Positions 137-54,495 of a stretch of 55,994 nt of DNA are shown here, one piece after another (within the stretch, counting starts at the first letter, position 1; the number at the start of each line of letters is the position of its first letter). The stretch is from a virus (lineage: Duplodnaviria > Caudoviricetes): positions 1 to 55,994 of the IMG/VR virus record IMGVR_UViG_3300025543_000030. One strand, 5' to 3'. The position numbers and the translations under genes were made by a program. Under the pieces are notes generated by a model that worked only from the letters and a program-made list of their open reading frames with translations, was not told the DNA's origin and ran no database searches.

Positions 137-983
137 AATTTCTAATAGTTTTAAATAGTGGATGTCTGTAACTACCGTATTGAGTACGTTCGAAATATGT
201 AAACGTAGCTCTTTGGCCCATATACTTGTGTATATTTTTAAGCATATTAGCTAAATCTTTGTAGTTGTAGCCTTTACCTGGAGGACAACCAAACTTATTA
301 CCATTGTCATCTTGCATTAAGAACTTGCCAAGAGTACCTTCACGTTTGCCTTTACCTTCTTCATAGCCAATAATTGTGGCTTCAGTGTCACTAAAGTCTT
401 TAAACTTTTGTAAGTTGTAAGATCGTTTTTGCTGATAGGGTTTATCTAGACGTAGTATAGAGCCTTCGTAACCGTTATTTAAGTTGTATTGATGTCTTAA
501 CTGTGCAGACTCTTTAGAATTAACTAGAGTAGTTTCTACATATTTAATACAGTAGTTGTACATATCAGAGCAAGTTAGTTGATCAGATCTGTAACTATAA
601 GGCTTGTTCATAACTGTTTCTATATAATCATAGCAATGAAACTGTATTAGTTTTTTAGCATCAGCCTTATCGGCATCAGTTGGTTTTTGTTTTCTAACTA
701 ATGATATAATCTTTTCGAAGTCATCTCTAAGATCATGATTGTATAATTCACCATCAAGAACTATATCTACATTAGCATAGTCAAAGAAAAATTCATTTAA
801 CGATAGTTTAATGTGTTCAAGATTGTGAAATTCTTTACCTGTACGTGAGAAACATCTAATGTTTTCTTTGTCGTCGACATATATAACACAACGTACGCCG
901 TCAAGCTTAGGTTGAATGTATACTTTCTCGGACCAGTCGACAGGTTTTTTGTCTACTTTGTATGCGAGCATTGGTTTAATCAT
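129..983 (-). CDS. lig: ATP-dependent DNA ligase (minimal adenylation + OB-fold type)
   Basis: Motif I QPKLDGVR (KxDG), III LDGELY, IIIa FHCYD, IV YEGSILR, V LQKFK; C-terminal OB-like segment ending in RHP. Confidence 0.93.
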   Translation of the reverse strand: MIKPMLAYKVDKKPVDWSEKVYIQPKLDGVRCVIYVDDKENIRCFSRTGKEFHNLEHIKLSLNEFFFDYANVDIVLDGELYNHDLRDDFEKIISLVRKQKPTDADKADAKKLIQFHCYDYIETVMNKPYSYRSDQLTCSDMYNYCIKYVETTLVNSKESAQLRHQYNLNNGYEGSILRLDKPYQQKRSYNLQKFKDFSDTEATIIGYEEGKGKREGTLGKFLMQDDNGNKFGCPPGKGYNYKDLANMLKNIHKYMGQRATFTYFERTQYGSYRHPLFKTIRNYE

Positions 984-1885: not shown

Positions 1886-2046
1886 TATACTAATTCTTCA
1901 CCTATACTGATTATTTCAGCGATTATTAATACTGCTACACCTAATGACAACGATGACATTAGGATGCTAAAGCCCATTACTCTAAGTATAGACTTGAATA
2001 AACTCACTTTAAAATGTGGAGTGAGTTTGCTTTTAAATTTACTCAT
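1885..2046 (-). CDS. small membrane protein (53 aa)
   Basis: Hand-translated MSKFKSKLTPHFKVSLFKSILRVMGFSILMSSLSLGVAVLIIAEIISIGEELV. Hydrophobic, A/T-rich leader, TAATG coupling to the next gene. Confidence 0.7.
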   Translation of the reverse strand: MSKFKSKLTPHFKVSLFKSILRVMGFSILMSSLSLGVAVLIIAEIISIGEELV

Positions 2047-2068
2047 ATTTAATTTAATTTAATGTTAG

Positions 2069-2141
2069 TTGACTCGCTAGGGCTCGAACCTAGACTCTTC
2101 TGGACCAAAACCAGACGTGTTGCCAGTTACACCACGAGTCA
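2069..2141 (-). tRNA. tRNA-Gln (anticodon UUG), CCA not encoded
   Basis: Full cloverleaf: TGACTCG/CGAGTCA acceptor, GTGT/ACAC D stem, TCTGG-TT TTG GT-CCAGA anticodon arm, CTAGG-TTCGAGC-CCTAG T arm; followed by A-CTA. Confidence 0.93.
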
Positions 2142-2146
2142 TTATG

Positions 2147-2377
2147 CTAATCTAATAGCACTTGATAAGCTTTAGGGTTGGCTTTTCTAAACCAGTCTAA
2201 GCCTTTTCTTGTTAAATCGTACTTTTGTACCATTTGAGAACCCATAATTAAGTCATACATACTTAATTCTAAGTTGTTTAGTTCGTAAGTATCGCCTGAA
2301 AAAGGGTTTGTTACTGTTTCGCCTTTGTCGTATATTGTACCGTCGAACCATTTAGGTAATTGTGTTTTGTTTTTCAT
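2147..2377 (-). CDS. hypothetical protein
   Basis: ORF track, 76 aa, tightly packed with neighbours. Confidence 0.75.
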   Translation of the reverse strand: MKNKTQLPKWFDGTIYDKGETVTNPFSGDTYELNNLELSMYDLIMGSQMVQKYDLTRKGLDWFRKANPKAYQVLLD

Positions 2378-2606
2378 AATCTAAGTAATCTATTCTTTCG
2401 TGATCTTTTTCTATTAATGATGCTATATAATCCCACACTTCACGTTGTTGTTTTGTGTGTCTCAATACGCCTTCTAGTTGGTCTATTGTTATAAAAGGTG
2501 TTATATTATCTTTTATTTCTTGCTTTAACCTGCTAATGTCAGTGTCTAGACTGTATACATTAGCAAAAGCTTTGTCATGAGCTAAATCTTTTATTCTACT
2601 TTCCAT
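2352..2606 (-). CDS. hypothetical protein
   Basis: ORF track, 84 aa, coupled to neighbours. Confidence 0.7.
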   Translation of the reverse strand: MESRIKDLAHDKAFANVYSLDTDISRLKQEIKDNITPFITIDQLEGVLRHTKQQREVWDYIASLIEKDHERIDYLDYEKQNTIT

Positions 2607-2839
2607 TATTTATTAATTATATTGTTACCATATAATAAATCTTGAGCAGACAACTTGTAAGTTGGTATGTCACAGTAAACTGATATATCAGATACTTGAC
2701 TAACTGTTAAGTCATACCATGACGTTTTAGACATAAGTACATATTTAAGTCTTTTAGCGCTAGAATACTGTCTAGCATTTTTTTGCAGTGACGACTTAAA
2801 ACCTGGTTCTAGTCTGTCATAAATTGTTTTGATTCTCAT
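2606..2839 (-). CDS. hypothetical protein
   Basis: ORF track; ATG lies 5 nt downstream of the conserved motif. Confidence 0.75.
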   Translation of the reverse strand: MRIKTIYDRLEPGFKSSLQKNARQYSSAKRLKYVLMSKTSWYDLTVSQVSDISVYCDIPTYKLSAQDLLYGNNIINK

Positions 2840-2844
2840 ATTTA

Positions 2845-2877
2845 TATTATCCGTGTTAATTCGTATTTAGTTTGTAA
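2845..2877 (-). promoter_or_regulatory. conserved bipartite motif copy 2
   Basis: TTACAAACTAAATACGA-ATTAACAC-GGATAATA, then 5 nt, then ATG. Confidence 0.75.
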
Positions 2878-3079
2878 CATATCTTTCTTTGTTACTATCG
2901 ATTATTTCACCGATTTCATCTTGCATAGACACTATATCCATAGCAAGTAGCTGTAGTTCTGCTAAACCATTTACTTCGTAAGTACTTAGATTATTGACTT
3001 CGTTATCTTGTATAGCGTTTACGCAGTCTTGTAACGCTCTTGCAGTATTCTCGAATCTGCAGTAACTCATGTTTGGCAT
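2867..3079 (-). CDS. conserved phage hypothetical protein (MSYCRFENT family); start revised from 3112 to 3079
   Basis: MPNMSYCRFENT is preceded by the A/T leader TAAATAAATTAAAT; the upstream extension overlaps a predicted structured RNA. Confidence 0.75.
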   Translation of the reverse strand: MPNMSYCRFENTARALQDCVNAIQDNEVNNLSTYEVNGLAELQLLAMDIVSMQDEIGEIIDSNKERYVTN

Positions 3080-3102
3080 ATTTAATTTATTTAATGTTAG
3101 AG

Positions 3103-3173
3103 TGGCGACCAACCTGTGAGCAATGTCGTAAGCTTCTCACGGTGAATGCAACGTGTGACTAATTTCACCAGTC
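3103..3173 (-). ncRNA. putative structured RNA (short closing stem, two hairpins, 3' GCCA)
   Basis: GACU/GGUC closing stem, GGUGAA/UUCACC and GUGAG/CUCAC hairpins, followed by G-CCA. Confidence 0.45.
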
Positions 3174-3178
3174 TGTAG

Positions 3179-3252
3179 TGGAAGTGGGCGGAGTCGAACC
3201 GCCGTTAGACACCTTTGCTTTCGCCGCGGTTGTCTCTTACCTTATCACTCCC
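3179..3252 (-). ncRNA. tmRNA tRNA-like-domain (TLD)-like small RNA lacking an mRNA-like domain
   Basis: GGGAGUG/CACUUCC-A acceptor with G3-U70; stemless D loop AUAAGGUAAG; helix AGAC(A)ACC/GGUGUCU capped by GC-GAAA-GC; AAC linker; T arm GGCGG-UUCGACU-CCGCC. Confidence 0.7.
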
Positions 3253-3255
3253 ATT

Positions 3256-3342
3256 GGCCGGCTATTCACTTATGTGTGTGTAGCATTATCTCCAGTGGTT
3301 CTCGACACCACATACACACCTAATTAAGCTACTCGTCCGGCC
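3256..3342 (-). ncRNA. putative rod-shaped structured RNA with bulged-G (loop E/sarcin-ricin-type) motif
   Basis: Nested helices GGCCGG/CCGGCC, GCUUA/UAAGU, GUGUGUA/UACACAC, GUGGU/ACCAC; AGUA opposite GAA next to the second helix. Confidence 0.55.
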
Positions 3343-3346
3343 TCTT

Positions 3347-3535
3347 TTATTTTCTACGCCAAGCTTTGTGTACTTGATCACTTAGTTCTTGACTTACTAC
3401 TTGTATTTCTAGAACTTGTTTGTTAGCAATAATAGGTATATAGCTATATTGCTGAGTTGAACTACAGTTTACACAATTTGAATAACCTAATGCTATTCTG
3501 CCTGCCGGTATTTTGTTATTACATTTACATTTCAT
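3347..3535 (-). CDS. DksA/TraR-like C4 zinc-finger protein; start revised to 3535
   Basis: MKCKCNNKIPAGRIALGYSNCVNC resembles the C..C...IP..R.......C..C pattern of TraR/DksA fingers (first pair CxC). ATG lies 5 nt after the motif. Confidence 0.6.
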   Translation of the reverse strand: MKCKCNNKIPAGRIALGYSNCVNCSSTQQYSYIPIIANKQVLEIQVVSQELSDQVHKAWRRK

Positions 3536-3540
3536 ATTAT

Positions 3541-3573
3541 TATTATCCATTAATAATCGTATTTAGTTTGTAA
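3541..3573 (-). promoter_or_regulatory. conserved bipartite motif copy 3
   Basis: TTACAAACTAAATACGA-TTATTAAT-GGATAATA, then 5 nt, then ATG. Confidence 0.75.
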
Positions 3574-3671
3574 TTAAATCGTCTATAATATTCTACTTCA
3601 AGCCTTTCCGCTTCATACTTAGTTATTTTAAGTAGTTTAATGTGCTTATGTCTTAGTTTTCTAGTCTTCAT
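3543..3671 (-). CDS. small basic hypothetical protein (42 aa)
   Basis: Hand-translated MKTRKLRHKHIKLLKITKYEAERLEVEYYRRFNYKLNTIING; fills the gap and stops inside the motif. Confidence 0.55.
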   Translation of the reverse strand: MKTRKLRHKHIKLLKITKYEAERLEVEYYRRFNYKLNTIING

Positions 3672-3861
3672 CTAATCCAGCATGTAATTTTTCTATTGTT
3701 GCTATCATTATAGCATTGTGAACATGGTTATAATCCTCGCTGTCAAGTCCTTCAAACTCTTCAACGCCATCCATTGCCCAATTTACTGCTTCATACAATG
3801 TTTCTTTGATGTGAGACACTTGAGCGTCTGCTATTTCATCTATAATTTTCATTTTACTCAT
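3661..3861 (-). CDS. acidic hypothetical protein
   Basis: ORF track, 66 aa, ATGA coupling. Confidence 0.7.
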   Translation of the reverse strand: MSKMKIIDEIADAQVSHIKETLYEAVNWAMDGVEEFEGLDSEDYNHVHNAIMIATIEKLHAGLDED

Positions 3862-4115
3862 AATATTGCTTTTTTAACTTGTTTTAAATCGTATTTTTCA
3901 TGTGAATCACGCCACATTTTGTGCATTGTGTACTTACTTGATTGAGTATACGATGTTTTACCACGTAATTTAACCTGTTTGTACTCGCGATCGGTAAATG
4001 GTTGGCATTCACCGTGCACTTTGTTAAGCTCATAGTGTTGAAAACTACGTTGTTTACGCTTGTTTTTAACATATTGCTTTAGTTCTTGCATATTTCTACA
4101 CATATATTCTATCAT
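3858..4115 (-). CDS. basic hypothetical protein (start uncertain)
   Basis: ORF track, 85 aa. Confidence 0.65.
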   Translation of the reverse strand: MIEYMCRNMQELKQYVKNKRKQRSFQHYELNKVHGECQPFTDREYKQVKLRGKTSYTQSSKYTMHKMWRDSHEKYDLKQVKKAIL

Positions 4116-4242
4116 TTATGCGATAAAACGAAGTGTAATTTGTATACTCTATGTTTTGATGTAGTGGAGTAAGCACTTGGTAACCTTTGTCTGTTTCTAA
4201 CAGAACATTACCTGTTTCTTGATTGAATTTGATTTGTTTCAT
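4096..4242 (-). CDS. small hypothetical protein (48 aa)
   Basis: Hand-translated MKQIKFNQETGNVLLETDKGYQVLTPLHQNIEYTNYTSFYRINDRIYV; ATG lies 7 nt after the motif. Confidence 0.65.
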   Translation of the reverse strand: MKQIKFNQETGNVLLETDKGYQVLTPLHQNIEYTNYTSFYRINDRIYV

Positions 4243-4249
4243 ATACTTA

Positions 4250-4282
4250 TATTATCCATTAGTTTTCGTATTTAGTTTGTAA
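4250..4282 (-). promoter_or_regulatory. conserved bipartite motif copy 4
   Basis: TTACAAACTAAATACGA-AAACTAAT-GGATAATA. Confidence 0.75.
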
Positions 4283-4695
4283 TTTCTTATGTAGAAGTCT
4301 AACATAAATTTCATGCGAGCTAAAGTGTTCCAGATTTTAGTTCTAGTGTAACCATTGTAGATATATGTTTTAAGTGTACCTTCATCAGTTAGAAACATTT
4401 GTCTTTGCTCTCTTTTATAAACTGGATTTAGTTGATAGTTAGATGAGCAAGAGTTTACATTTCTTACATAACCTGATTTATACACTGCTAATCTTAGTTT
4501 TATTTTAGAGGCAAATCTCTCACCTTTTAAATGGAAATATCTTGATGGTACAGGAAATTCAAATTCTCTTGTGCCATTTATTGCTTGTCTTTGTGTGGTT
4601 ACTTCTTTGATATTATGCTCTATTAATAGTCTTCTAGCAAAAGAATCCTCGAGCATTTGATTTTCTTGTTGCCAAGTGTATTTATTTGTACTCAT
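4252..4695 (-). CDS. hypothetical protein
   Basis: ORF track, 147 aa; the stop lies within the motif. Confidence 0.75.
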   Translation of the reverse strand: MSTNKYTWQQENQMLEDSFARRLLIEHNIKEVTTQRQAINGTREFEFPVPSRYFHLKGERFASKIKLRLAVYKSGYVRNVNSCSSNYQLNPVYKREQRQMFLTDEGTLKTYIYNGYTRTKIWNTLARMKFMLDFYIRNYKLNTKTNG

Positions 4696-6206: not shown

Positions 6207-6869
6207 ATGGCAATAATCTCTTCATATCCTCAACTTACACCACAGCTTGGTGATAAAATACTAGGATCCAACGTATATGACAGCTCAGGCAATGTTGTAC
6301 CTAACAATCCTACATGTCAATTTAGCTTTTCAGACGTAAAAGCTTTAGTGGATCAAAACTACGTAGAACAATTCACATCTTCTTCTGCGGTTGCATCACA
6401 GCAATCAGGATTAAACTCTATTTATAGTATACAATTTGGAACTATAACTGGTACTAGCACTAGTAATGTTCAATTGTTACAAGGTGGTGGTTCTCCTACT
6501 GCAGGTGATAAAGTACAATTTAACACTTTAGGTACATATCAAATAACATTAACGTATTCTGTTGGTGTAAATCAATCAGCGACAAACATACCTTACTTAA
6601 TATTTAGAACATTACAAGACGGAGCAACTCAAGTTGGACCAACTATAGTGTACAATCAAAAGTTTGAAACAATAAACAACCCTGTCCCACTTATTATTCC
6701 TATAACAGTGAATATAACAACAGCAGGTACGTATTATAATTTCCAAATGGCTAGAAACGGGGTCAACGACGGAGGTTTAGTTAAAAACGCTAACCCTATT
6801 AACGGTGCTATTTTACCAGCACCTACAGCTCCTTCAATAGCAACAATAAAAATATCTAAACTAATATAA
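6207..6869 (+). CDS. virion structural protein (tail/fibre-associated)
   Basis: N-terminus MAIISSYP...DKILGS is paralogous to the next gene's MAIIYSYP...DLVLGT; beta-rich, S/T/G-rich C-terminal domain. Confidence 0.65.
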   Translation: MAIISSYPQLTPQLGDKILGSNVYDSSGNVVPNNPTCQFSFSDVKALVDQNYVEQFTSSSAVASQQSGLNSIYSIQFGTITGTSTSNVQLLQGGGSPTAGDKVQFNTLGTYQITLTYSVGVNQSATNIPYLIFRTLQDGATQVGPTIVYNQKFETINNPVPLIIPITVNITTAGTYYNFQMARNGVNDGGLVKNANPINGAILPAPTAPSIATIKISKLI

Positions 6870-20047: not shown

Positions 20048-21607
20048 ATGTCAAATGCAATTGTGAAAAATCTGAACTTTGGTTCAGATGCTAAAAACAA
20101 TGTGTTTGCTGGTATTACAAAACTTACACAAGCCGTTAGCTCCACTCTTGGAGCTAGTGGTAAGTGTGTTATGTTAGAAGATCAAACCGGTGAACCTATT
20201 ATTACAAAAGATGGTGTAACAGTGGCTGATGCCATTACACTTCTTGATCCTGTTGAAAACATGGGAGCAACTTTATTAAAGCAAGCTGCTAGAAAAACAG
20301 TGAGAGAAGCTGGAGACGGTACAACAACCGCAACAGTATTAGCTCATTCTATTTTAGATGAAGCTTATAAAGTTATAACAAAAGAAAACGCTAGAGATTT
20401 AAAAAAGGGTATTGAAACAGCAACTGATAAAGTTGTTGATTATTTAAACTCAATAGTTACTACAGTTAAAGACGATATGATTGATCAGGTAGCAACTATA
20501 TCTACTAATAACGACCCTGAACTTGGTAAAATTATTGCTAATGCTTTTAGATCTGTAGATGAAACTGGTGTTGTTATACTTGAAGTTTCTGATTTACCAG
20601 AAACTATATTTGAAACCATTGATGGTATACAATACGATAGAGGATTAAAAAATATACATTTTGTAACTAACAAAGAAAACAATACAGCTGAACTAGATAA
20701 ACCATTAGTATTGATAGTTGAATCAGAGGTTGAAAATGTTAGAAAAATACAAAGTGTTTTAGAGTATGCTATAAAACAAAATAGATCATTACTTATTATA
20801 GCTGATGTAGACCAACAAGTTATGTCCGCTTTAGCAATGAATAAATTAAAGGGTAATATTAAAGTTAATTTAATTGACGCTCCTGTTTACGGGGTTAATA
20901 AAAAAGAAACATTAGAAGATTTGGCTTTACTTACAGGAGCCACTGTTATAAATGAAGATCTTGGAGATGATATTGATTTAATAGGCCCTGAACACTTAGG
21001 TGAAATACAAAAAAGTGTTACAAGCCAAACAGAAACTATACTACATGTTGGTGAAGTTTGTAAAGAGGTTAAAGAAATCATTAAAGATTTAAAATCTAAA
21101 CTTAAAACAGCTAAGCACCCTGGAATAGTAGTTAATACTGAAAAAAGACTAGCTAGATTATCAGGTAAAGTTGCTGTAGTGAAAGTAGGGGCTAATTCAG
21201 AAGTTGAATTAAAAGAAAAGAAAGATAGAGTTGAAGACGCAATATGCGCAACTAAAGCTGCTATAAAAGAAGGTATTGTTCCAGGTGGTGGTATTGCATT
21301 ACTTAATGCATCACAAAAAGTTCAAACTTCTAACGCTTATGAAAACATACTTTTAAGAGCAATTAAAGCACCTTTTAAGACCATTTTAAGCAATGCAGGT
21401 ATAGTTAACCATAAAGTATCTTTAACAGAAGGAAAAGGTTTAAATGTAGTTACAGGAAATATGGTTAATATGATTGAGTCAGGGATTATTGATCCTTTAC
21501 TTGTCACAAAAAGTGCGTTAAGAAACGCGGCATCAGTAGCATCAACTATTTTATCAACCGATTGTGTAATCAATAATCTTAGAGTTAATGAAGGCAATAG
21601 GGAATAA
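20048..21607 (+). CDS. groEL: chaperonin GroEL (Cpn60)
   Basis: ITKDGVTVA, AGDGTTTATVLA, KDRVEDA..ATKAA..EGIVPGGG and GIIDP..VTKSAL.NA.S.A signatures. Confidence 0.97.
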   Translation: MSNAIVKNLNFGSDAKNNVFAGITKLTQAVSSTLGASGKCVMLEDQTGEPIITKDGVTVADAITLLDPVENMGATLLKQAARKTVREAGDGTTTATVLAHSILDEAYKVITKENARDLKKGIETATDKVVDYLNSIVTTVKDDMIDQVATISTNNDPELGKIIANAFRSVDETGVVILEVSDLPETIFETIDGIQYDRGLKNIHFVTNKENNTAELDKPLVLIVESEVENVRKIQSVLEYAIKQNRSLLIIADVDQQVMSALAMNKLKGNIKVNLIDAPVYGVNKKETLEDLALLTGATVINEDLGDDIDLIGPEHLGEIQKSVTSQTETILHVGEVCKEVKEIIKDLKSKLKTAKHPGIVVNTEKRLARLSGKVAVVKVGANSEVELKEKKDRVEDAICATKAAIKEGIVPGGGIALLNASQKVQTSNAYENILLRAIKAPFKTILSNAGIVNHKVSLTEGKGLNVVTGNMVNMIESGIIDPLLVTKSALRNAASVASTILSTDCVINNLRVNEGNRE

Positions 21608-28034: not shown

Positions 28035-28639
28035 TGAAAAGTTTATTTGATTTTATCGTTGAGCCTGTTGGCCAGCGATATTCTAATAAAGTCAAAGTAG
28101 GTGACAAAAGCCTTATAATCAATACCCAAGTAGAAACTTTTAAGTCTGTAAATAATATAGCTAAAGTTATAGAAACACCTTTATCATTTAAAACTGATAT
28201 TAAAAAAGGTGATTTAATAATGATTCATCATAACGTGTTTAGAAGATGGTACAACATGAGAGGTGAAGAAAAAAATAGTAAGTCTTATTTCAAAGATGGT
28301 TTATATTTTGTTCAATTAGATCAAGTTTACTTATACAAAAGAAAAGATAAATGGATAACTATCAATGATAGATGTTTCATAAGTCCAATCAAAAGTAATG
28401 ACAATACAGTGTCAGATCAGGAGCAATATCTTATTGGTGTATTAAAATATGGTAATAGTGCCTTAGAAGCGCTAGGACTCAACGAGGGAGACTTAGTTGG
28501 TTACACACCTAACGGAGAATATGACTTTGTCGTTGATGGCAAACGTCTTTATTGTATGAAATCTAATGATATTGTAATTAAACATGAACGTCAAGGAAAC
28601 GAAGAAGAATATAATCCACGCTGGGCACGTAGCGGTTGA
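28034..28639 (+). CDS. tandem GroES-like domain protein
   Basis: Two GroES-like halves: FIVEP...AKVIETP...IKKGDLI and CFISP...GVLKYG...LNEGDLVGY...VDGKRLYCMKSNDI. Confidence 0.6.
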   Translation: MKSLFDFIVEPVGQRYSNKVKVGDKSLIINTQVETFKSVNNIAKVIETPLSFKTDIKKGDLIMIHHNVFRRWYNMRGEEKNSKSYFKDGLYFVQLDQVYLYKRKDKWITINDRCFISPIKSNDNTVSDQEQYLIGVLKYGNSALEALGLNEGDLVGYTPNGEYDFVVDGKRLYCMKSNDIVIKHERQGNEEEYNPRWARSG

Positions 28640-47382: not shown

Positions 47383-50300
47383 ATGCCAAGATATAAAGCT
47401 AACGGAAAAATATATAATCTTCCTGAGGAAAAAGTAGAGCAATTTTTGCAAACTTATCCAAATGCAATTTTAGTTGAAGATGAAGAAGTAAAGTTAAACG
47501 GTATTGCGGAGACGGATGCGTCTGTAATACCAGGGAAAAATATGGCGTCCACATCGGATCCTGGTTCTTCGGGTTTACCAAAAATACCAACTCAAATAGG
47601 TGATGAGTTGCAAGGTGTATCTATAGATGATATACCAAGAGAAACACCAACTAATGGTGAATTAGTATTTGGTGACCCTAGAGATTTAAATACGCAGATT
47701 ACAGATTATAGAAAAGATTATATTGATGCTTTTAATGGTAGAGGTCGATTTGCTGAAATGTTGGTTGATAAAAATCCTAAAGAACGTTTAGAATTAATTG
47801 AGAGATTAATACCTAAACCTAAGTATGTAGATAAAAAATACAATAAACAAACAGATTCTTATGATGAAAAACCTACAGAAGAAGCTGTAGAAATTTTTAG
47901 CTCTTATTTACCTTCTGATTTTGATTTATTTGATAAACCTGAGCAGTTTAACAAAGCTATGGAAGATGCTAAAGTGCAAGCTTTAAATAATGATCCTGTA
48001 GTTAAAATTATGTTAGGCGCAAGAATGTCTATTGTAACTAAAGAAGCTGAGCAATATAAATTAGATTTAGCTAAAAAATATAATTTAAACGATCCTAATG
48101 ATTATGACAAAGCCGAGAAGGATTATCAAAATTGGTTTAATACAAATGTTGTACAATATGTAGAAGATTCTGAAACCGTGCAAGCAATAGAAGATCAATT
48201 AGAAGATGTTGGAAACGTTGCTATGTCAAATAGAAACACAGAATATGGTCGTGATAAAGATTTTATGCTTTCAGCTTTTGATTTTGACAAAGATTCTAGT
48301 GTTTTAGATTTTGGAGAAGCAATGTATAAAAGTGTAAGACAAATGGGTGTTAGTTATAGAAAATCTGTAACTAGTCAATTTCATGGTAATATAATAAAAT
48401 ACGATAAAAAATTACAAGATTATAAAAAAAGACTGGATGCTGGAAAAATTAGTCAAGAAAAATATGATGGCTTAGTTAAGTATTATGAAAATAGAAAAGA
48501 AAAAGCTCAACGCTCTATAGTAAACAACGTTAAAGCTATTTCTGAAACTGAAGGTTATTTAAGTTTATTTGAAAAATCTGATTTAAAAGATGGTGCGCAA
48601 TTTGAGGATCTTATAAGAATAGTTGGTGAAGCAATACCTCAATTTGCTGCTGCTGGCGCAGGTGCTGTAACAGGTAATCCAGCTTTGGCGAGCATGGGTT
48701 TAATTTCTATATTTGGTCAAGAGTATGGCAATAATTACTACGAAGCAATAGCAGAAGGTCTTTTAGCTGAAGGTATTAAACCCACGGAAGAAAATATAGC
48801 TAAAGCCATAAGCGATGGTAAATATGCTAATAGAGCTGAAGCTGCTGCTTTTGCTGCTTTAGGAACTGCTTTAGAAAGAGTTGGAGCTAAAGGCATTATG
48901 AAAGATCTTGCTAAAAACATAGGTTTCCAAAATCTTAAAAAAATGTCTTCATCAATATATAAAAATGGTATAAAAGATTTTGTTAAAAAATTAGTAAAAA
49001 AAATACCAAGTTTTGCTAAATCCCCTGCAAGAGAATATTTAACTGAAGGCGCTCAAACAGGTTTATCACAATTATCTGTTGGTTCACAACTAGAATTAGA
49101 AACAGATTTAAACTTAGGGTATACAAAATTTTTAAATGGAGAAGAAATATTAGAAGCCGCTGAAGCAGGTGGTTGGGTTGGTGGAATACTACGCGTAGGC
49201 GGCGCAACAATAAACCAAACAACTCTTGAACTTAGAAATTCAGCTAGAGATGTTGCTACTAAATTTGATTTAAAAGGTAGTATGCTTAAAAAAGTTAATG
49301 GATTTTTTAAAGCTGTAGAACAAGATTTAAAAGTTAGGTTTGAAAAAGGAGAACTTACACAAGATCAATATCAAGAAGAATTACAAAATCTTAGTAACAC
49401 TAGAAATACAGGTATTAAAATACCTAAAAATTACAGCGAAGAAAGCAAACAAAGAGCTTTTGATTTAATTTTTGAAAAAACTAAACTTACTAATGAAATA
49501 GCTGGTTTAGATGAAAGTTCAGTTGAGCCTCAAAAAGAACAAATAAAAGATATAAACACAGAGTTAGCTGTAATATCTTTAATTGAAAAAGGTAGAATTA
49601 AAGCTGATCAAGACAGTGCACAAGATACCGCTAGCGCTACTAAAATAGGTAAACAGTTAGGTTTTAGTGTTAACAAGCTAACGCCAGAACAGATAAAAGA
49701 AAAAGGATATAACGTTAAAGAAGATTTAGGTTTTATAGAAGGTGATCAAATATTTTTAAATGAAGATTTGATTGGTAAAAGTACAAACGTTAAAACAGCT
49801 TCTCACGAGCTGTTGCATGGTATACTGTATAATTCTATAAAAAATGGTAAACTAAGTAGATCTATTATAGAAAAATGGTATAAAAATAATTTGTCAGAAG
49901 AGCAAATAAAAGTTTTAGATCAAAGAATGGAAGATGGGGGTTATAAAACTCTTAAAACTAAAGAAGGTAAAAACTATTTAGATGTAAGACCCGATGAATA
50001 TTTAACTCAAATATACGAAGCTGGTTTAATTGATCAACCTGGTATGTTTGAAAAAGTAAAACTTTTAGTTCAAGATATTTTAAATTTAATCCCTGGCGTA
50101 AATGTTAAGTTTGTTAAAAAAGATGATTTAAAAGATTTTTTAAGAGCTTATCAAACAAGCATAAAAACAGGCAAGTTATCTCAAAAAGTTGTAGATGTAG
50201 TGGGTGGTAGAATTGATGTTAAAGCACCGGTTGCTTCTTCAAAAATAACACCTAAAGCTCAAGAATTTATTGCATTAAATAAAGAAGGTGTTATTACTAA

Positions 50301-53300
50301 CGAAGCGTTAGTAGATATTATAAATTCTCCTTCATCTACTTCGGTAGATAAATTTGGAGCTATAGAAGCTGTTGTAGAGGCTAATTGGCCTGTTATAAGT
50401 AATGCTATAAAGTTTAACCCAACAGGTGCTATACCTATGGATGCTGTTAAAACAGCTGTAACAGAGCAAATTCAAGGTATATTTCCAGGTAGAAAAGTTC
50501 CTTTGTTTAAAGGTTATAATGAAAGCCAAGGTAAAGTAAATACTGTTATTAGTAGTTTTTTAAGACCAAGACAAGCTGAAATATTAGAAAGAGCTAAAAA
50601 AATAGGTGGAATAACACAAGAAGGTGCTAGTGTTGACTCTAAAGAAGCTAAACAAATTAAAGATACTACTACAGAAAAACTTACAGAACAAGTTGCTACA
50701 AAACCTGTAAAGGCTAAAGAAAGTTTAAGAAAAAAAATTAAACTTACTGATGCTACGAGCAAAAAAGTAGTTGATGCTGTTGTAAAAACATTTGGTACTA
50801 AGTTACCTCCTGCAGATTCTAAACAATTTAAACAAGCGTTGTTAAAAGCTTTTAAAACAGAATTAAAAACAACTATAGCTAAAGACGTTTTAGGATCAAG
50901 AGCGGCTTATGAAACTTTTTTAAGAGATAACTTTGAAGCTATAATAGAAGCATTACCTCAAGACGTTATAAATAAAAGGTTTAGACCGTTTGCAGAAGAC
51001 ACTGGTAAAAGAGAAAAAACCAAAGAAGGTAAAAAGATATTTAAGAAAAAAGATATTACTAAAGCGGAATTTATAAAATACTTTTTAGGTAGAAATGTAG
51101 GTACATCAACTAAAGGTACTAGAAAAGATGCTTTAGCAGAGGCTTTAGCTCAGGAATTTGCAACAGATGCTACTATGCAAACTATACAAAGACCTGATGT
51201 AAAAGAAAAAAGAGAGTTTGTAGACAAAACACAGACTACGGAAAAAGTTAGTAAAGCAATAGATAGACCTACAGATTTTGCTTTTAGTAAAGTAGCTCAA
51301 GACGCAATAGATAATATTGATTTTGCAGTTGAAGCTGCTCAAGGAAGAGTTAAAGTTGATGGTTTATTAAAGTTTTATAAATTACAAAACACTTTAGTTA
51401 TTAAAAGTGAAAAAGATATAGATGCTTATGTTGATAAAATGATTGAAGATGTTTTTCCATTACTACCAAGAGAAGCATTTTTTGGTCCTAGTGGAGGAAC
51501 TGCATTTACAAGTAGTAGTAAAATATTTGGTTTTAAAACATCAAAAGATCCTTTATGGGAAAAGGTTGTAAATAAATTTAAATCTTTAAATAAACCTAAA
51601 ATTGATGGTAAAGATAATCCAAACTACGTTCCTGATAGCGCTTTTGGTAAACCAATATTAGATAATAGAGGTAATCCTATTGATTTTAAAGTTTCTTCAT
51701 ACGCTACTTTGTTTAAAAATCCAGCTACTATAGAAAAAAATATTAAAAATGGAAACATTGATAAATTTAATACTAAAGTTAGATTGATTCATGAAACTTT
51801 ATGGAAAAGAATAAATGAATCTATTTCAAAAAACAAAAATGCAGCTACAGGAATAGCTACATATTTAAGAATAACAGCGAACGATACTAAACATTGGCAC
51901 AAACAAGGCGCTGCTTTCGTAGGGTATTCTACAAAACCTGTTGGAAAAGTTAATTCCAAAGGTAAAAGAACGTTATATGAATATGAGCACGCTATGCCTG
52001 CTACCGCTGCTTACTTATATTTATTAGATGTTGCTTTGAGTAAGGGCAATTTTAAACCTGCTTATAATGCTGTAATGGATAATTACAAGTTAATTGCATT
52101 AGACAAGGCAGATAATGCTAAATTAGCTAAGGCTAAACTTGGAATTGGTATGCCTAAAGGCTGGAAGCTAGGTGAAAATTTTTGGTGGCAAAGATATTTT
52201 AACAGTGAAGTTGCTAAGTTCGACGGCGGAATAAACCCTATTTCTTTAACATTCACCAATGGAAGAACTTTTGCTGACCAACTTCAAATAAATTCATCTG
52301 GTAATTTTTCAACACCAGCTTTTTCTAAAGCTAGAAAACAGGCTAAAGTTTATAATGAAAAAATATTACCACCTGTTATAGATAAAAAGTTTGACAAAAA
52401 TACAACTAATGATCAGGTTTTAGATGAAATGGAAAAACTTGATAAAGAAGCTTCAGACGCTAGAGTTGCTTTTAGTAAAACTCAAGATCTTAATAAAGAT
52501 TTTAATGATATAATTGAAAGAGCTACAGGTATTGGTACGGAAAAAAGATATGGTCAAACTAAAGCTAGAGCTGTAGGCGCAGATAAAGGTAAATTTAATT
52601 TACTAGGTATACCACCGTCTGCTCAAGACTTTGTAGGTTTAACTAGGTACTTTGCTGGTAAAGGAAAACAAGGTGATGAAACTATTGCTTGGGTAAAAGA
52701 AAACTTTTTAGATCCATTTGCTAGAGCTAATATAGATATATCAAATGCTAGAGTTGCTTTAGCTAATGACTTTAAAGCTTTAAAAAAGCTATTAGGTGTT
52801 AGTCCTAAAGATTTAAATAAAAAAATAACTGGTGAACCTTATACTGTAGGTAATGCTGTTAGAGTTTATACGTGGATACAACAAGGTATGACTATACCAG
52901 GTTTATCTAAGACTGATCAAAAAATACTAGAAGACTATGTTACTGCAGATGAAAACCTAGTTACATTTGCTAATGAGCTTATAGCTATAAACAAAGATAA
53001 CGGTTACCCTAAACCTACTGATGGTTGGTTGGCTGGAACTATTACTACAGATTTACTTTCAGGTTTAAACACTGTAGTAAGAGCTAAGTATCTAAAACAA
53101 TGGCAAAATAATGTTGATGAAGTATTTAGTGAAACTAACATGAACAAGCTCGAGGCAGCTTATGGTAAAGGCTACAGAGATGCTTTAGAAAACATGCTTG
53201 GTCGTATGAAAACTGGTAGTAACAGAGGTTTTAAAGGTGATACATTAACTGGTAGATTTATTGATTGGATTAATAATTCTGTTGGGGCTATCATGTTTTT

Positions 53301-54495
53301 TAATATGAGATCTGCTGTGTTACAAACTATATCAGCTGTTAACTTTGTGAACTGGTCTGATAACAACCCATTAAAAGCAGCGGCTGCATTTGCAAATCAA
53401 CTTCAGTATTGGAAAGATGTAATGAAACTCATGAACTCTGATTACTTAGTTGAAAGACGTAATGGTTTAAAAATAAATGTTAGTGAAGCTGATATTGCTG
53501 AGATCGCTGCTGAGTCTAAAAACAAAGCTAAAGCTTTTATAAGTAAAATATTAAAACTAGGTTTTCTACCTACACAAATAGCAGATAGTTTTGCCATTGC
53601 TTCAGGTGGTGCTACGTTTTATAGAAACAGATATAAAAGTTTAAAGAAAGAAGGTTTATCTGACAAAGAAGCTGAGGCGCAAGCATTCCAAGATTTTAGA
53701 GAAATAGCTGAAGAGTCACAACAATCAAGTAGACCTGATAGAATTAGTCAACAGCAAGCAGGGCCAATGGGACGTATTATATTAGCTTTTGCTAATACCC
53801 CAGCCCAATATGCTAGATTAATGCAAAAAGCCGCTAGTGATCTTAAGAATCGCCGAGGAGATGATAAAACTAATATATCTAAGATATTATATTACGGAGC
53901 TATACAAAATGTTATATTCAACGCTTTACAACAAGCTTTATTTGCTATGGCGTTTGGAGATGAAGAGCCTGATGAAGAAAAACTAAACAAAAAGTATACA
54001 GGTATAGCAAACGGTATGGCTGACTCATTATTAAGAGGTGTTGGTTTTCATGGTGCCGCTATATCTACACTTAAAAATGTAGTAATGAAATTAGCAGAAG
54101 GTAAAGAAGCTCAAGACGCTGCAATAGAGTTGTTAGATATTTCACCTCCTATATCTTCTAAAATAGGTAAATTAAAATCTGCAGGTAGAACGTGGGACTG
54201 GAATAAGAAAGAGATAATAGAAAAAGGTTGGTCATTAGATAACCCTGCTTATTTAGCTGCTGGCCAAGTTATTAGTGCTGCTACAAATGTACCGCTTGAT
54301 AGAGGTATAAGAAAGTTACAAAATTTAAAAGATGCGTCTGATGCTGAAAATGAAGAGTGGATGCGAGTGGCTAATGCTTTAGGTTGGGCAAAATGGGAAT
54401 TAGAGTGGCAAAAAGATAAACCAAAAAAGAAAAAGAAAAAAAGAACATTAGGTAAAAGTTTAAGAAAAAGTTTTGGAAAAAAATTAAAATTATAA
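47383..54495 (+). CDS. very large (2370 aa) putative internal virion/polyvalent protein with a zincin motif
   Basis: HELLH (49804-49818) with distal DEYL; Ala/Gly-rich amphipathic segments; Lys-rich tail. Confidence 0.75.
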   Translation: MPRYKANGKIYNLPEEKVEQFLQTYPNAILVEDEEVKLNGIAETDASVIPGKNMASTSDPGSSGLPKIPTQIGDELQGVSIDDIPRETPTNGELVFGDPRDLNTQITDYRKDYIDAFNGRGRFAEMLVDKNPKERLELIERLIPKPKYVDKKYNKQTDSYDEKPTEEAVEIFSSYLPSDFDLFDKPEQFNKAMEDAKVQALNNDPVVKIMLGARMSIVTKEAEQYKLDLAKKYNLNDPNDYDKAEKDYQNWFNTNVVQYVEDSETVQAIEDQLEDVGNVAMSNRNTEYGRDKDFMLSAFDFDKDSSVLDFGEAMYKSVRQMGVSYRKSVTSQFHGNIIKYDKKLQDYKKRLDAGKISQEKYDGLVKYYENRKEKAQRSIVNNVKAISETEGYLSLFEKSDLKDGAQFEDLIRIVGEAIPQFAAAGAGAVTGNPALASMGLISIFGQEYGNNYYEAIAEGLLAEGIKPTEENIAKAISDGKYANRAEAAAFAALGTALERVGAKGIMKDLAKNIGFQNLKKMSSSIYKNGIKDFVKKLVKKIPSFAKSPAREYLTEGAQTGLSQLSVGSQLELETDLNLGYTKFLNGEEILEAAEAGGWVGGILRVGGATINQTTLELRNSARDVATKFDLKGSMLKKVNGFFKAVEQDLKVRFEKGELTQDQYQEELQNLSNTRNTGIKIPKNYSEESKQRAFDLIFEKTKLTNEIAGLDESSVEPQKEQIKDINTELAVISLIEKGRIKADQDSAQDTASATKIGKQLGFSVNKLTPEQIKEKGYNVKEDLGFIEGDQIFLNEDLIGKSTNVKTASHELLHGILYNSIKNGKLSRSIIEKWYKNNLSEEQIKVLDQRMEDGGYKTLKTKEGKNYLDVRPDEYLTQIYEAGLIDQPGMFEKVKLLVQDILNLIPGVNVKFVKKDDLKDFLRAYQTSIKTGKLSQKVVDVVGGRIDVKAPVASSKITPKAQEFIALNKEGVITNEALVDIINSPSSTSVDKFGAIEAVVEANWPVISNAIKFNPTGAIPMDAVKTAVTEQIQGIFPGRKVPLFKGYNESQGKVNTVISSFLRPRQAEILERAKKIGGITQEGASVDSKEAKQIKDTTTEKLTEQVATKPVKAKESLRKKIKLTDATSKKVVDAVVKTFGTKLPPADSKQFKQALLKAFKTELKTTIAKDVLGSRAAYETFLRDNFEAIIEALPQDVINKRFRPFAEDTGKREKTKEGKKIFKKKDITKAEFIKYFLGRNVGTSTKGTRKDALAEALAQEFATDATMQTIQRPDVKEKREFVDKTQTTEKVSKAIDRPTDFAFSKVAQDAIDNIDFAVEAAQGRVKVDGLLKFYKLQNTLVIKSEKDIDAYVDKMIEDVFPLLPREAFFGPSGGTAFTSSSKIFGFKTSKDPLWEKVVNKFKSLNKPKIDGKDNPNYVPDSAFGKPILDNRGNPIDFKVSSYATLFKNPATIEKNIKNGNIDKFNTKVRLIHETLWKRINESISKNKNAATGIATYLRITANDTKHWHKQGAAFVGYSTKPVGKVNSKGKRTLYEYEHAMPATAAYLYLLDVALSKGNFKPAYNAVMDNYKLIALDKADNAKLAKAKLGIGMPKGWKLGENFWWQRYFNSEVAKFDGGINPISLTFTNGRTFADQLQINSSGNFSTPAFSKARKQAKVYNEKILPPVIDKKFDKNTTNDQVLDEMEKLDKEASDARVAFSKTQDLNKDFNDIIERATGIGTEKRYGQTKARAVGADKGKFNLLGIPPSAQDFVGLTRYFAGKGKQGDETIAWVKENFLDPFARANIDISNARVALANDFKALKKLLGVSPKDLNKKITGEPYTVGNAVRVYTWIQQGMTIPGLSKTDQKILEDYVTADENLVTFANELIAINKDNGYPKPTDGWLAGTITTDLLSGLNTVVRAKYLKQWQNNVDEVFSETNMNKLEAAYGKGYRDALENMLGRMKTGSNRGFKGDTLTGRFIDWINNSVGAIMFFNMRSAVLQTISAVNFVNWSDNNPLKAAAAFANQLQYWKDVMKLMNSDYLVERRNGLKINVSEADIAEIAAESKNKAKAFISKILKLGFLPTQIADSFAIASGGATFYRNRYKSLKKEGLSDKEAEAQAFQDFREIAEESQQSSRPDRISQQQAGPMGRIILAFANTPAQYARLMQKAASDLKNRRGDDKTNISKILYYGAIQNVIFNALQQALFAMAFGDEEPDEEKLNKKYTGIANGMADSLLRGVGFHGAAISTLKNVVMKLAEGKEAQDAAIELLDISPPISSKIGKLKSAGRTWDWNKKEIIEKGWSLDNPAYLAAGQVISAATNVPLDRGIRKLQNLKDASDAENEEWMRVANALGWAKWELEWQKDKPKKKKKKRTLGKSLRKSFGKKLKL

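Follow-up and report, generated by a model that had tools for sequence, protein, structure and literature searches.

A 74-nt stretch on the minus strand of an uncultured virus genome raises the question of whether a phage can carry a tmRNA gene reduced to its tRNA-like domain (TLD), and what such an RNA may do to its host. The window analysed here is a whole IMG/VR virus record (55,994 bases, estimated to be 87% complete, approximately 33% G+C), with genes for a large terminase, a portal, tail fibres and a GroEL homologue. The terminase shares 62.5% identity with that of the uncultured podovirus record MW202828, the nearest GenBank relative, and 30-45% with those of phages of Flavobacterium, Maribacter, Cellulophaga and Tenacibaculum; because of these relatives, the host is probably a member of the Flavobacteriia. 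Neither an integrase nor SmpB nor an RF-1/ArfB-type domain was found in the window at that level of completeness. Among ten neighbouring minus-strand open reading frames (ORFs) that were scanned, the DNA ligase (129-983) alone has a clear family; the ORF at 980-1252 has a weak match to a UVR motif, and two others match PHROG families of unknown function, one of them a conserved small ORF (phrog_8760; 2867-3076, minus strand) downstream of the RNA array.

The element itself (3179-3252, minus strand), whose sequence is exactly that quoted in the original prediction, reads as a TLD-only tmRNA-type gene. In its minimum free energy (MFE) fold, the 5' strand of the acceptor stem, GGGAGUG (3246-3252, with G3 at 3250), pairs over 7 bp with the 3' strand CACUUCC (3180-3186, with U70 at 3182 by sequence, fold and alignment). 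Between them lie a D-loop analogue of 10 unpaired nt, AUAAGGUAAG (3236-3245), which contains GG, has no D stem and is near-invariant in subfamily 1; a central arm of 29 nt (3207-3235), the equivalent of tmRNA helix H2/P2, with one bulge, an internal loop and a variable module capped by GAAA; a linker of 3 nt, AAC (3204-3206), whose AC preceding the T stem is tmRNA-like; and a T arm with a 5-bp stem, GGCGG-UUCGACU-CCGCC (3187-3203), supported by the fold and by alignment to the Rfam tmRNA model RF00023. The discriminator A73 is at 3179, and the trailer reads CUA (3176-3178) where CCA would be, so that CCA is not encoded and is presumably added to the mature RNA. The fold, at -29.2 kcal/mol, is more stable than those of shuffled sequences (-19.4 +/- 3.2; z -3.05; 3 of 200 shuffles equal it), and the 29 nt between D loop and linker leave no room for the pseudoknot ring PK1-PK4. 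Sequence and MFE fold thus reproduce the predicted acceptor with G3-U70 and A73, the canonical T arm, the 3-nt linker and the stemless GG loop. An attP or integration remnant was considered and rejected, both acceptor strands being present, unlike in attP, and the window having no integrase.

These parts fit the published definition of a TLD, namely a stemless GG loop, a helix, an AC linker and a T arm (PMC3968760). According to the same source, AlaRS recognises its substrate by G3:U70 and A73, SmpB attaches to the elbow of the TLD and stands in for the anticodon and D stems, a long variable arm is mimicked by H2, and every known partner but S1 binds the TLD. The 74-nt element would presumably be expressed, alanylated and bound by SmpB. 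A sigma-70 promoter scan of 1900-4300 gave nothing usable beside it. Public runs that hold the stretch or part of it number 20 of the 23 listed, 6 of them on record as RNA; the four RNA runs examined consist of assembled contigs of relatives, from which start, end, CCA and transcript are unreadable. In two RNA runs the depth in the bin containing the TLD exceeds that of its neighbours, a quantity that is no measure of expression.

Covariance models place the element closest to tmRNA. The best Rfam family on 2800-3600 in E-value mode is tmRNA (RF00023; 36.0 bits, E 1e-12 in an 801-base search), with an alignment running end to end over model positions 1-374 in which 328 positions are replaced by 33 nt, and the tRNA model (RF00005) scores lower. 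The check by Rfam models proposed with the original prediction bore out the family, but the score stays under the gathering threshold of 47 bits, as do those of its relatives (35.3-41.5 bits). Over the whole window, ARAGORN and Rfam at gathering scores were silent at the element, and each reported one gene, tRNA-Gln(UUG) at 2068-2141 on the minus strand, the sole canonical tRNA. An ordinary tRNA is ruled out by the lack of a D stem, an anticodon arm and an ARAGORN call, together with the higher score of the tmRNA model. Similarly, a permuted tmRNA is rejected, since the acceptor 5' and 3' strands stand in standard order and not with the 3' piece first; RF04321 gives only a partial match (14.4 bits, E 1.4). 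An ordinary tRNA-Ala(GGC) of a Bacteroidaceae genome likewise aligns end to end with RF00023 at 29 bits, so this score alone discriminates weakly, and the case therefore rests on architecture together with the comparative data on family and covariation. A covariance model built from the family, R1, scores the element at 77.6 bits.

The mRNA-like portion of a tmRNA, comprising the resume codon, the tag frame and the stop codon, is lacking from the element. No frame running from GCN to a stop was found in the insert of the window, as the original prediction had it, and across the family such frames of at least 2 codons occur in 41 of 120 inserts, fewer than in shuffled inserts (50.9 +/- 4.8). 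None of the frames among the 120 inserts ends in the manner of an Ala-rich tag. When given isolated elements, ARAGORN returned short 'tags' for four of them, and three (L220, L193 and L231) share one 'tag' that falls on a common module with identical nucleotides. A tiny tag frame is accordingly rejected: frames are not enriched, and the shared module has no synonymous variation.

To ask whether the element belongs to a family, an exact-pattern scan of IMG/VR with both acceptor strands fixed yielded 24 loci with elements of 73-86 nt, and two further scans with the acceptor stem freed yielded longer and more divergent members. In the early collection the acceptor stem, GG loop, AAC linker and T arm are near-invariant; the stretch between these constant parts is unrelated from phage to phage and still closes into a helix. 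In alignment A2 (27 distinct sequences, from which R1 was built), pairing holds in 93.7% of cells; the figure drops to 81.4% in shuffles and does not exceed 57.3% when partners are slid. All five basal pairs of the central helix change on both sides, the seven acceptor pairs are standard in 27 of 27 sequences, and A48 and C49 are invariant. The family and its covariation mark the element as more than a product of chance.

As RNA-based fishing is biased, the small ORF at 2867-3076 was used as a protein anchor to escape that bias. Relatives of it are encoded by 282 viral contigs, of which the best 80 were kept with flanks of 2.5 kb; R1 at E <= 0.001 gave 48 matches in 44 of these best 80 loci, all on the strand of the ORF. 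Among the 42 distinct sequences, the commonest lineage is GGGCGUG/CACGUCC with loop AAAUGGUUAG (25 of 42), followed by the pairing of the window, GGGAGUG/CACUUCC (9 of 42), and by GGGGGUG/CACCUCC with loop AUAUGGUUUUGAC (4 of 42). Of all cells, 94.9% pair, whereas shuffles give 73.3% and slid partners no more than 48.2%; both sides change in every one of the five central-helix pairs and in four of five T-arm pairs, counts that lean toward structure because the alignment was fitted to the model. The pair 3:70 is G:U in 39 of the 42 sequences; this anchored set is the only one in which the G:U is fairly testable, most other members having been fished with the acceptor 3' strand fixed, and R1 was itself trained on G:U sequences. 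The adjacent pair 4:69 is C:G in 27, A:U in 10 and G:C in 4. A constant wobble beside a covarying neighbour is what selection for recognition by AlaRS would predict. Fold, RF00023 match, covariation and the lack of any enriched tag-like frame concur with the predicted TLD architecture that has no anticodon.

A wider census points in the same direction. A search of IMG/VR for the exact 3'-terminal 25 nt gave 90 stretches for the GGGCGUG lineage, 80 of which were taken as loci, and 41 for the window's lineage. R1 found matches of 47-185 nt in 87 of the 88 loci newly fetched; exceptions in kind among the fetched loci are a full-length tmRNA (L285), a permuted tmRNA (L281) and a true tRNA-Ala (L287), and L283 gave nothing. 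To pass a further filter, an element needed a 7-bp acceptor with every pair formed, a T arm of 5 bp whose loop reads UUC(G/A)A, and GG in the D-loop analogue; of 124 distinct elements from IMG/VR phage contigs, 116 passed, 47-185 nt long (median 89.5). Of these, 114 have G3:U70, 113 have A73 and 106 have AC ahead of the T stem, in keeping with the predicted alanine identity; as the pool was fished mostly with the 3' strand fixed, only the 5' half is informative on the G:U. The two exceptions are an A3:U70 element, which is the upstream copy of a tandem pair in L048 (the same contig as L109), and a G3:C70 element (L256). A second tandem pair lies on a 208-kb contig (L020), where, read by eye, it stands between a promoter-like site (TTGACA-17-TATCAT) and a terminator-like hairpin. 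Among the 120 pooled sequences that have a 7-bp acceptor, 102 are followed by CUA and 2 by CCA. Taken together, the sequences show several independent acceptor lineages, all keeping the alanine identity pair, and a form that is common and under selection throughout a group of aquatic phages.

Where might such genes have come from? The 25 nt comprising the T arm and acceptor 3' strand of the window are identical in 12 bacterial genome contigs. In 11 of these, all Patescibacteria and Bacteroidales assemblies, ARAGORN finds a full-length tmRNA of 343-409 nt ending exactly at the 25-nt stretch. The twelfth (L033, 903 bp) carries a TLD-only element of 116 nt next to tRNA-Met and tRNA-Gly, and looks like phage DNA in a bin. 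The data show the architecture, its conservation and covariation, and its kinship with tmRNA.

Comparison with host genes argues against recent capture. In a sample of 101 Bacteroidia genomes (including one, G095, flagged as unpublished), 89 have a tmRNA above the Rfam cut-off. ARAGORN was run on 30 tmRNA loci, 29 of them from this sample (the G095 locus, L081, being left out) and one further locus, L050; 23 of the 30 returned a tmRNA, mostly starting with GGGGYYGAC.GGUUUUGACAGC and mostly ending with ...UUUGGAC followed by the T arm and acceptor stem, and CCA is not encoded in most of the 23. The window's lineage has a 10-nt D loop and AAC, without the ...UUUUGAC / ...GGAC junction of Bacteroidia tmRNAs. 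Because of this shorter loop, and of AAC in place of GGAC, the lineage is not a recent copy of a host gene; for the same reasons, a 10-nt D-loop analogue and a missing junction, recognition by SmpB is not guaranteed. The GGGGGUG lineage keeps the loop GGUUUUGAC, typical of real Bacteroidia tmRNAs, along with a GGAA junction. When the element of locus L044 was used as query against 401 Bacteroidia genomes (G095 included), no TLD-only element of the family was found, and the single match below E 1e-3 is a tmRNA 3' end.

Related phages carry the full-length gene. The acceptor stem GGGGGCG/CGCCUCC of the element in locus L038 is that of the full-length tmRNA of Cellulophaga phage Calle_2, a standard tmRNA at 86.6 bits for which ARAGORN gives a tag; in one paper, Calle is reported as having 'one tmRNA gene' and no more. 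Maribacter phage Panino has a permuted tmRNA inside its tRNA array. Searches with the tmRNA model gave no match in phi19:3 and elemoB, and in Gundel only a 17-nt T-loop match, while R1 found nothing in MW202828 except a 16-bit match. GenBank phages have neither a near nor a distant DNA match to 2800-3700, and a 111-nt query matched there only the T arms of Streptomyces phage tmRNAs and of Pseudomonas phage PA_L9, the latter a permuted tmRNA. Judged from these sequences, the simplest history would be the reduction of phage-borne tmRNA genes.

A phage TLD-only tmRNA is not without precedent. The original prediction had named protist mitochondria alone as a source of such forms and thereby overstated the novelty: Mycobacterium phage DS6A is listed among tmRNAs as 'TLD only' (PMC4131195), having been catalogued since 2009/2014 (tmRNA Website; Mao et al. 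2009, cited in PMC4131195 and PMC11915505). A DS6A-like molecule 'strongly inhibits tmRNA, perhaps by titrating SmpB' (PMC4131195; repeated in PMC11915505), an inhibition reported whether or not the molecule was chargeable (PMC4131195). We located the DS6A gene at 28478-28557 of JN698994, where it matches RF00023 end to end at 43.2 bits and is followed by CUA. Like the element, it is a phage gene of approximately 80 nt with a 7-bp acceptor, G3:U70, A73, a stemless GG loop, a short hairpin closing H2, AC ahead of the T stem, an A-CUA end and no tag frame, and both score under the RF00023 gathering threshold (43.2 and 36.0 bits). On the other hand, no sequence kinship is detectable beyond the tmRNA core, and the D loop is 14 nt in DS6A as against 10 nt in the element. 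R1 missed the TLD gene when DS6A was searched, so that counts made with R1 cover the present family only. DS6A is a temperate actinophage with an integrase, whereas the contigs that carry the present family are podophage-like, contain no integrase and have their nearest cultured relatives among phages of Flavobacteriia. Unlike the DS6A TLD, the element stands in arrays with tRNAs and structured RNAs, and its family has several lineages, tandem copies and a hypervariable modular cap.

Other known RNAs resemble the element in part. With standard tmRNA (RF00023) it shares the acceptor stem, G3:U70, A73, the T arm, the stemless D loop and the start of H2, but it lacks pseudoknots, resume codon and tag frame and is 74 nt long instead of 343-409 nt. 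With the CDS-less tmRNAs of organelles (RF02544 in jakobid and other mitochondria; plastids) it shares reduction to the tRNA-like domain, described as having no tag frame in PMC3590771; PMC11915505 reports CDS-less plastid tmRNA genes of approximately 65 bp in Mallomonadaceae, a mitochondrial tmRNA apparently without a tag frame, and persistence of CDS-less tmRNAs with SmpB in mitochondria and some plastids. Those organelle genes are usually permuted and are thought to serve their own ribosomes, whereas the element is a virus gene that would act on the host. The permuted tmRNAs of phages (RF04321; Panino, PA_L9) have a related TLD core and also lie in phage tRNA arrays, but place the acceptor 3' piece before the 5' piece and then a tag frame, unlike the standard order and 74 nt seen here. 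tRNA-Ala has the same G3:U70, A73, T arm and tRNA-type processing context, and the tRNA-Ala of L287 even the same 3' 25 nt, but the element has no D stem, anticodon arm or anticodon. The 2025 tmRNA database (PMC11915505), which draws on RefSeq viruses, holds 9 'standard, no CDS' sequences and 79 bacteriophage entries, and members of the present family could be among them. The literature searched contains no description of this family, or of a TLD-only gene in any Flavobacteriia-type phage. The kind of object and the mechanism of SmpB interference are therefore already in print and are not new; the size of the family, its several lineages and its hypervariable helix cap are.

We consider it somewhat probable (roughly 55%) that the element interferes with tagging and ribosome rescue in the infected host, be it through titration of SmpB or through occupation of stalled ribosomes once one alanine has been added. 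The original prediction had proposed sequestration of SmpB or tag-less entry into ribosomes, a reasonable suggestion which appears plausible and agrees with what is in print on such molecules (PMC4131195, PMC11915505). The transcript would be cut from the RNA/tRNA array by the tRNA-processing enzymes of the host. An A-CUA(A) end is common to the tRNA-Met genes of related loci, the Calle_2 tmRNA and the DS6A TLD; that the array tRNA-Met genes share the A-CUAA end fits tRNA-type release followed by addition of CCA. CCA would then be added to the released TLD, host AlaRS would attach alanine by way of G3:U70 and A73, and host SmpB would bind the RNA at its elbow. Charged and SmpB-bound, it would vie with the tmRNA of the host for SmpB, EF-Tu and stalled ribosomes, where trans-translation would remain unfinished, the resume codon and stop codon being missing from the TLD. 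Pure titration of SmpB would not explain a strict G3:U70, because the published inhibition (PMC4131195) is reported to be independent of chargeability. The strictness of the charging determinants instead suggests that charging matters and that the RNA goes to the ribosome rather than merely soaking up SmpB, which is an argument and not a result.

The cap and its array were unexpected. The original prediction had rightly placed a GAAA-capped helix where the anticodon arm would be, but had taken it for an irregular leftover; it is instead a hypervariable slot holding modules common to other RNAs. The TLD is flanked by other closed-stem RNAs without an Rfam match at E <= 1. Directly 5' of it lies module A (3256-3342, minus strand; fold z -3.57; no Rfam match), for which 24 distinct homologues were collected; in these the core is constant, the closing stem (GGCCGG, GCUAG, GCAGG, GCCAG and others) covaries and the hairpin varies. 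Further modules, B, C and D, occur in related loci. When TLD inserts were compared by blastn-short with approximately 370 kb of loci (E <= 0.01), 14 of 14 matches fell within 230 nt of a TLD and shared its strand; they lay in module A, module B, a GAGGC...CCUC module, a free hairpin or a second TLD. For example, module A of L044 contains the same core as the window's cap, and so do TLDs of the GGGCGUG lineage (L127, L166). Modules are also common to TLDs of different subfamilies (the window, L127 and L166; L041, L142 and L154; L003 and L156), the TLD of L133 encloses an entire module D of the free-standing kind, and in L193 and L231 modules sit inside other modules. Internal loops of the modules are conserved in sequence and apical parts vary, and many modules of the pool have GNRA loops and UAGG/CCUAA internal loops. 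In 401 Bacteroidia genomes, the L044 element gave scattered matches of 17-40 nt in 72 genomes. A CRISPR-repeat mimic was rejected for the 41-nt shared module of L044, which showed no array-like multiple matches in those genomes, the test covering that module and that set.

The conservation of these modules and their presence in other RNAs hint that the cap, and not the TLD only, may carry function. Helix H2 of tmRNA points away from the ribosome. This orientation would explain the tolerance of nearly any module of approximately 25-140 nt and fits the length range of 47-185 nt. Either H2 simply tolerates whatever recombination in the array places there, or the caps do the work and the TLD serves as one carrier among others. 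Under the second option, which we regard as a rather unlikely alternative to interference, the TLD would be one of several array scaffolds through which the variable H2 module, as the working part, would gain stable ends, processing of the tRNA type and perhaps transport to SmpB, EF-Tu or the ribosome. The recurrence of cap modules in other scaffolds, all 14 matches lying close to a TLD, is what a working part would lead one to expect, as are the same modules in different TLD subfamilies, the nesting in L133, L193 and L231, and internal loops that stay constant while apical parts vary. Frequent recombination into a tolerant site could equally cause module sharing, however, and a carrier leaves the kept G3:U70 and A73 unexplained, a G:U pair being needless for processing or stability. 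A target or partner was not found for the one module compared with the 401 Bacteroidia genomes, where matches were short and scattered.

A version of this idea that retains the charging determinants is more doubtful still as a whole: the TLD may be an aminoacylatable, SmpB- and ribosome-directed carrier within a phage 'RNA toolkit' that displays a pool of exchanged modules. The common pool would be displayed by arrays comprising no fewer than three families of scaffold RNA (TLD, module A and module B), and the TLD would deliver modules to stalled ribosomes or SmpB, or join them into a larger RNA complex.

Interference with host rescue, our preferred reading, has also to be weighed against productive rescue without a tag, in which an alanyl-TLD with SmpB would free ribosomes stalled on fragments of host or phage mRNA, to the benefit of the phage and without marking their peptides for proteolysis, with release through a further factor as proposed for the CDS-less organelle tmRNAs. 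Strictly kept charging determinants would suit a need for aminoacylation and delivery by EF-Tu, CDS-less tmRNAs do persist with SmpB in organelles (PMC11915505), and full tmRNA genes in related phages imply that the lineage has a use for trans-translation. We nevertheless think it unlikely, because the stop codon is absent, the window yielded no domain of the release-factor or ArfB type, and the sole experiment on such a molecule in the papers surveyed is reported to have given inhibition and not rescue (PMC4131195).

A role outside translation is very improbable. The element could serve as an alanine donor, as substrate of an aminoacyl-tRNA-dependent transferase, or as a decoy for a host nuclease attacking tRNA or tmRNA, to which its kept alanine identity and tRNA-like shape, and nothing else, would lend themselves; no candidate transferase or nuclease was found among the 10 neighbouring ORFs scanned, and the tmRNA-specific stemless loop and AC linker would be needless. 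Least credible of all is a functionless remnant of a decayed tRNA-Ala, a decayed tmRNA or an attachment site, as might be suspected from the silence of ARAGORN and Rfam at gathering scores, the near-equal score of a tRNA-Ala on the tmRNA model and the shared 3' end of a real phage tRNA-Ala (L287), for decay would hardly leave 116 distinct copies intact, with each of the three helices showing compensatory changes, an element in 44 of the best 80 anchored loci, or a tandem pair between what by eye are promoter-like and terminator-like signals.

In the papers surveyed, the TLD-only form in phages previously consisted of one catalogued case, DS6A, and one inhibition experiment. The present family would turn it into a recurrent and testable phage strategy against the host's main ribosome-rescue system, and its natural variants are available for asking whether charging, SmpB binding or the cap matters. 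Furthermore, a modular cap held in common with unnamed RNAs of the same arrays points to an undescribed exchange of structured RNAs in phage genomes.

The gene at positions 3179-3252 (minus strand), which consists of the tRNA-like domain (TLD) of tmRNA alone, is directly preceded on its 5' side by a second structured RNA without a name, module A (window 3256-3342, minus strand). Module A has a fold z-score of -3.57 and 24 distinct homologues from related phage loci, among which the core is constant (…ACGAGUAGCUUAAUUAGG / CACAUAAGUGAAU…), the closing stem covaries and the hairpin is variable; Rfam holds no match to it. In contigs of relatives from RNA libraries, found in two runs, position 3252 is joined directly to 3346 (window coordinates), which indicates that those relatives lack module A. 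Other RNA-library contigs match the 3' part of the TLD as far as window position 3207 and diverge beyond it, indicating that the cap, the hypervariable module closing the central helix, differs in the relatives concerned.

Three further conserved closed-stem RNAs, modules B, C and D, flank TLDs in several of the loci collected for comparison (L003, L009, L019, L022, L041-L043 and others). As located by its core motif, module B is present in 19 of 36 and 19 of 80 loci, while modules C and D occur in 12 and 8 of 36 loci, respectively. Rfam holds no match to B, C or D at E ≤ 1 for the loci tested (L043, L046 and L048). On L033, a contig of 903 bp assigned to a Planctomycetota MAG, a 116-nt TLD-only element and a module C occur together with phage-type tRNA-Met and tRNA-Gly genes; this contig is probably phage DNA that ended up in a bacterial bin.

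TLD-only genes stand in tandem in two contigs. L048, from the contig that also yielded L109, has copies at 79-158 and 162-257, the upstream one with A3:U70 in place of G3:U70. In L020, from a 208-kb contig, the two copies are on the minus strand (6560-6638 and 6458-6534), and the pair is flanked, as judged by eye, by a promoter-like sequence (TTGACA-17-TATCAT) and a hairpin resembling a terminator. The element at 499-582 (plus strand) of L201, called tRNA-Arg(CCG) by ARAGORN, shares its acceptor stem (with G3:U70) and T arm with the TLD family and has, in addition, a D stem and an arm like that of an anticodon. Possible readings are a chimera and a tRNA of alanine identity whose anticodon is not one for alanine. 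Relatives of the window's phage group also carry full tmRNA genes in both gene forms: standard in Cellulophaga phage Calle_2 (L180; 42950-43311) and the IMG/VR relative L285, permuted in Maribacter phage Panino (L181; about 27.5 kb in the record) and the IMG/VR relative L281. These genes lie within tRNA arrays and share the A-CUAA trailer. Elsewhere, the window encodes a GroEL homologue (20048-21607, plus strand; phrog_5725, E 1.4e-136) and an ORF of 2370 aa (47383-54495, plus strand).

The variable hairpins of TLDs recur in other scaffolds of the same arrays, within approximately 250 nt of each TLD (L002-L048, L095-L174). These scaffolds are modules A and B, another module of the form GAGGC…CCUC, free hairpins and, as a further case, a second TLD. 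Short-blast comparison gave 14 significant matches, every one of them within the arrays and on the same strand. Nesting of one module in another occurs in L133, L193 and L231. Furthermore, GNRA tetraloops (mostly GAAA) and UAGG / CCUAA internal loops recur in many cap modules (for example, L010, L018, L041, L142 and window 3216-3223), a combination that we take to be reminiscent of the pairing of a tetraloop with its 11-nt receptor. Such a likeness, if real, would suggest RNA-RNA docking of one module with another.
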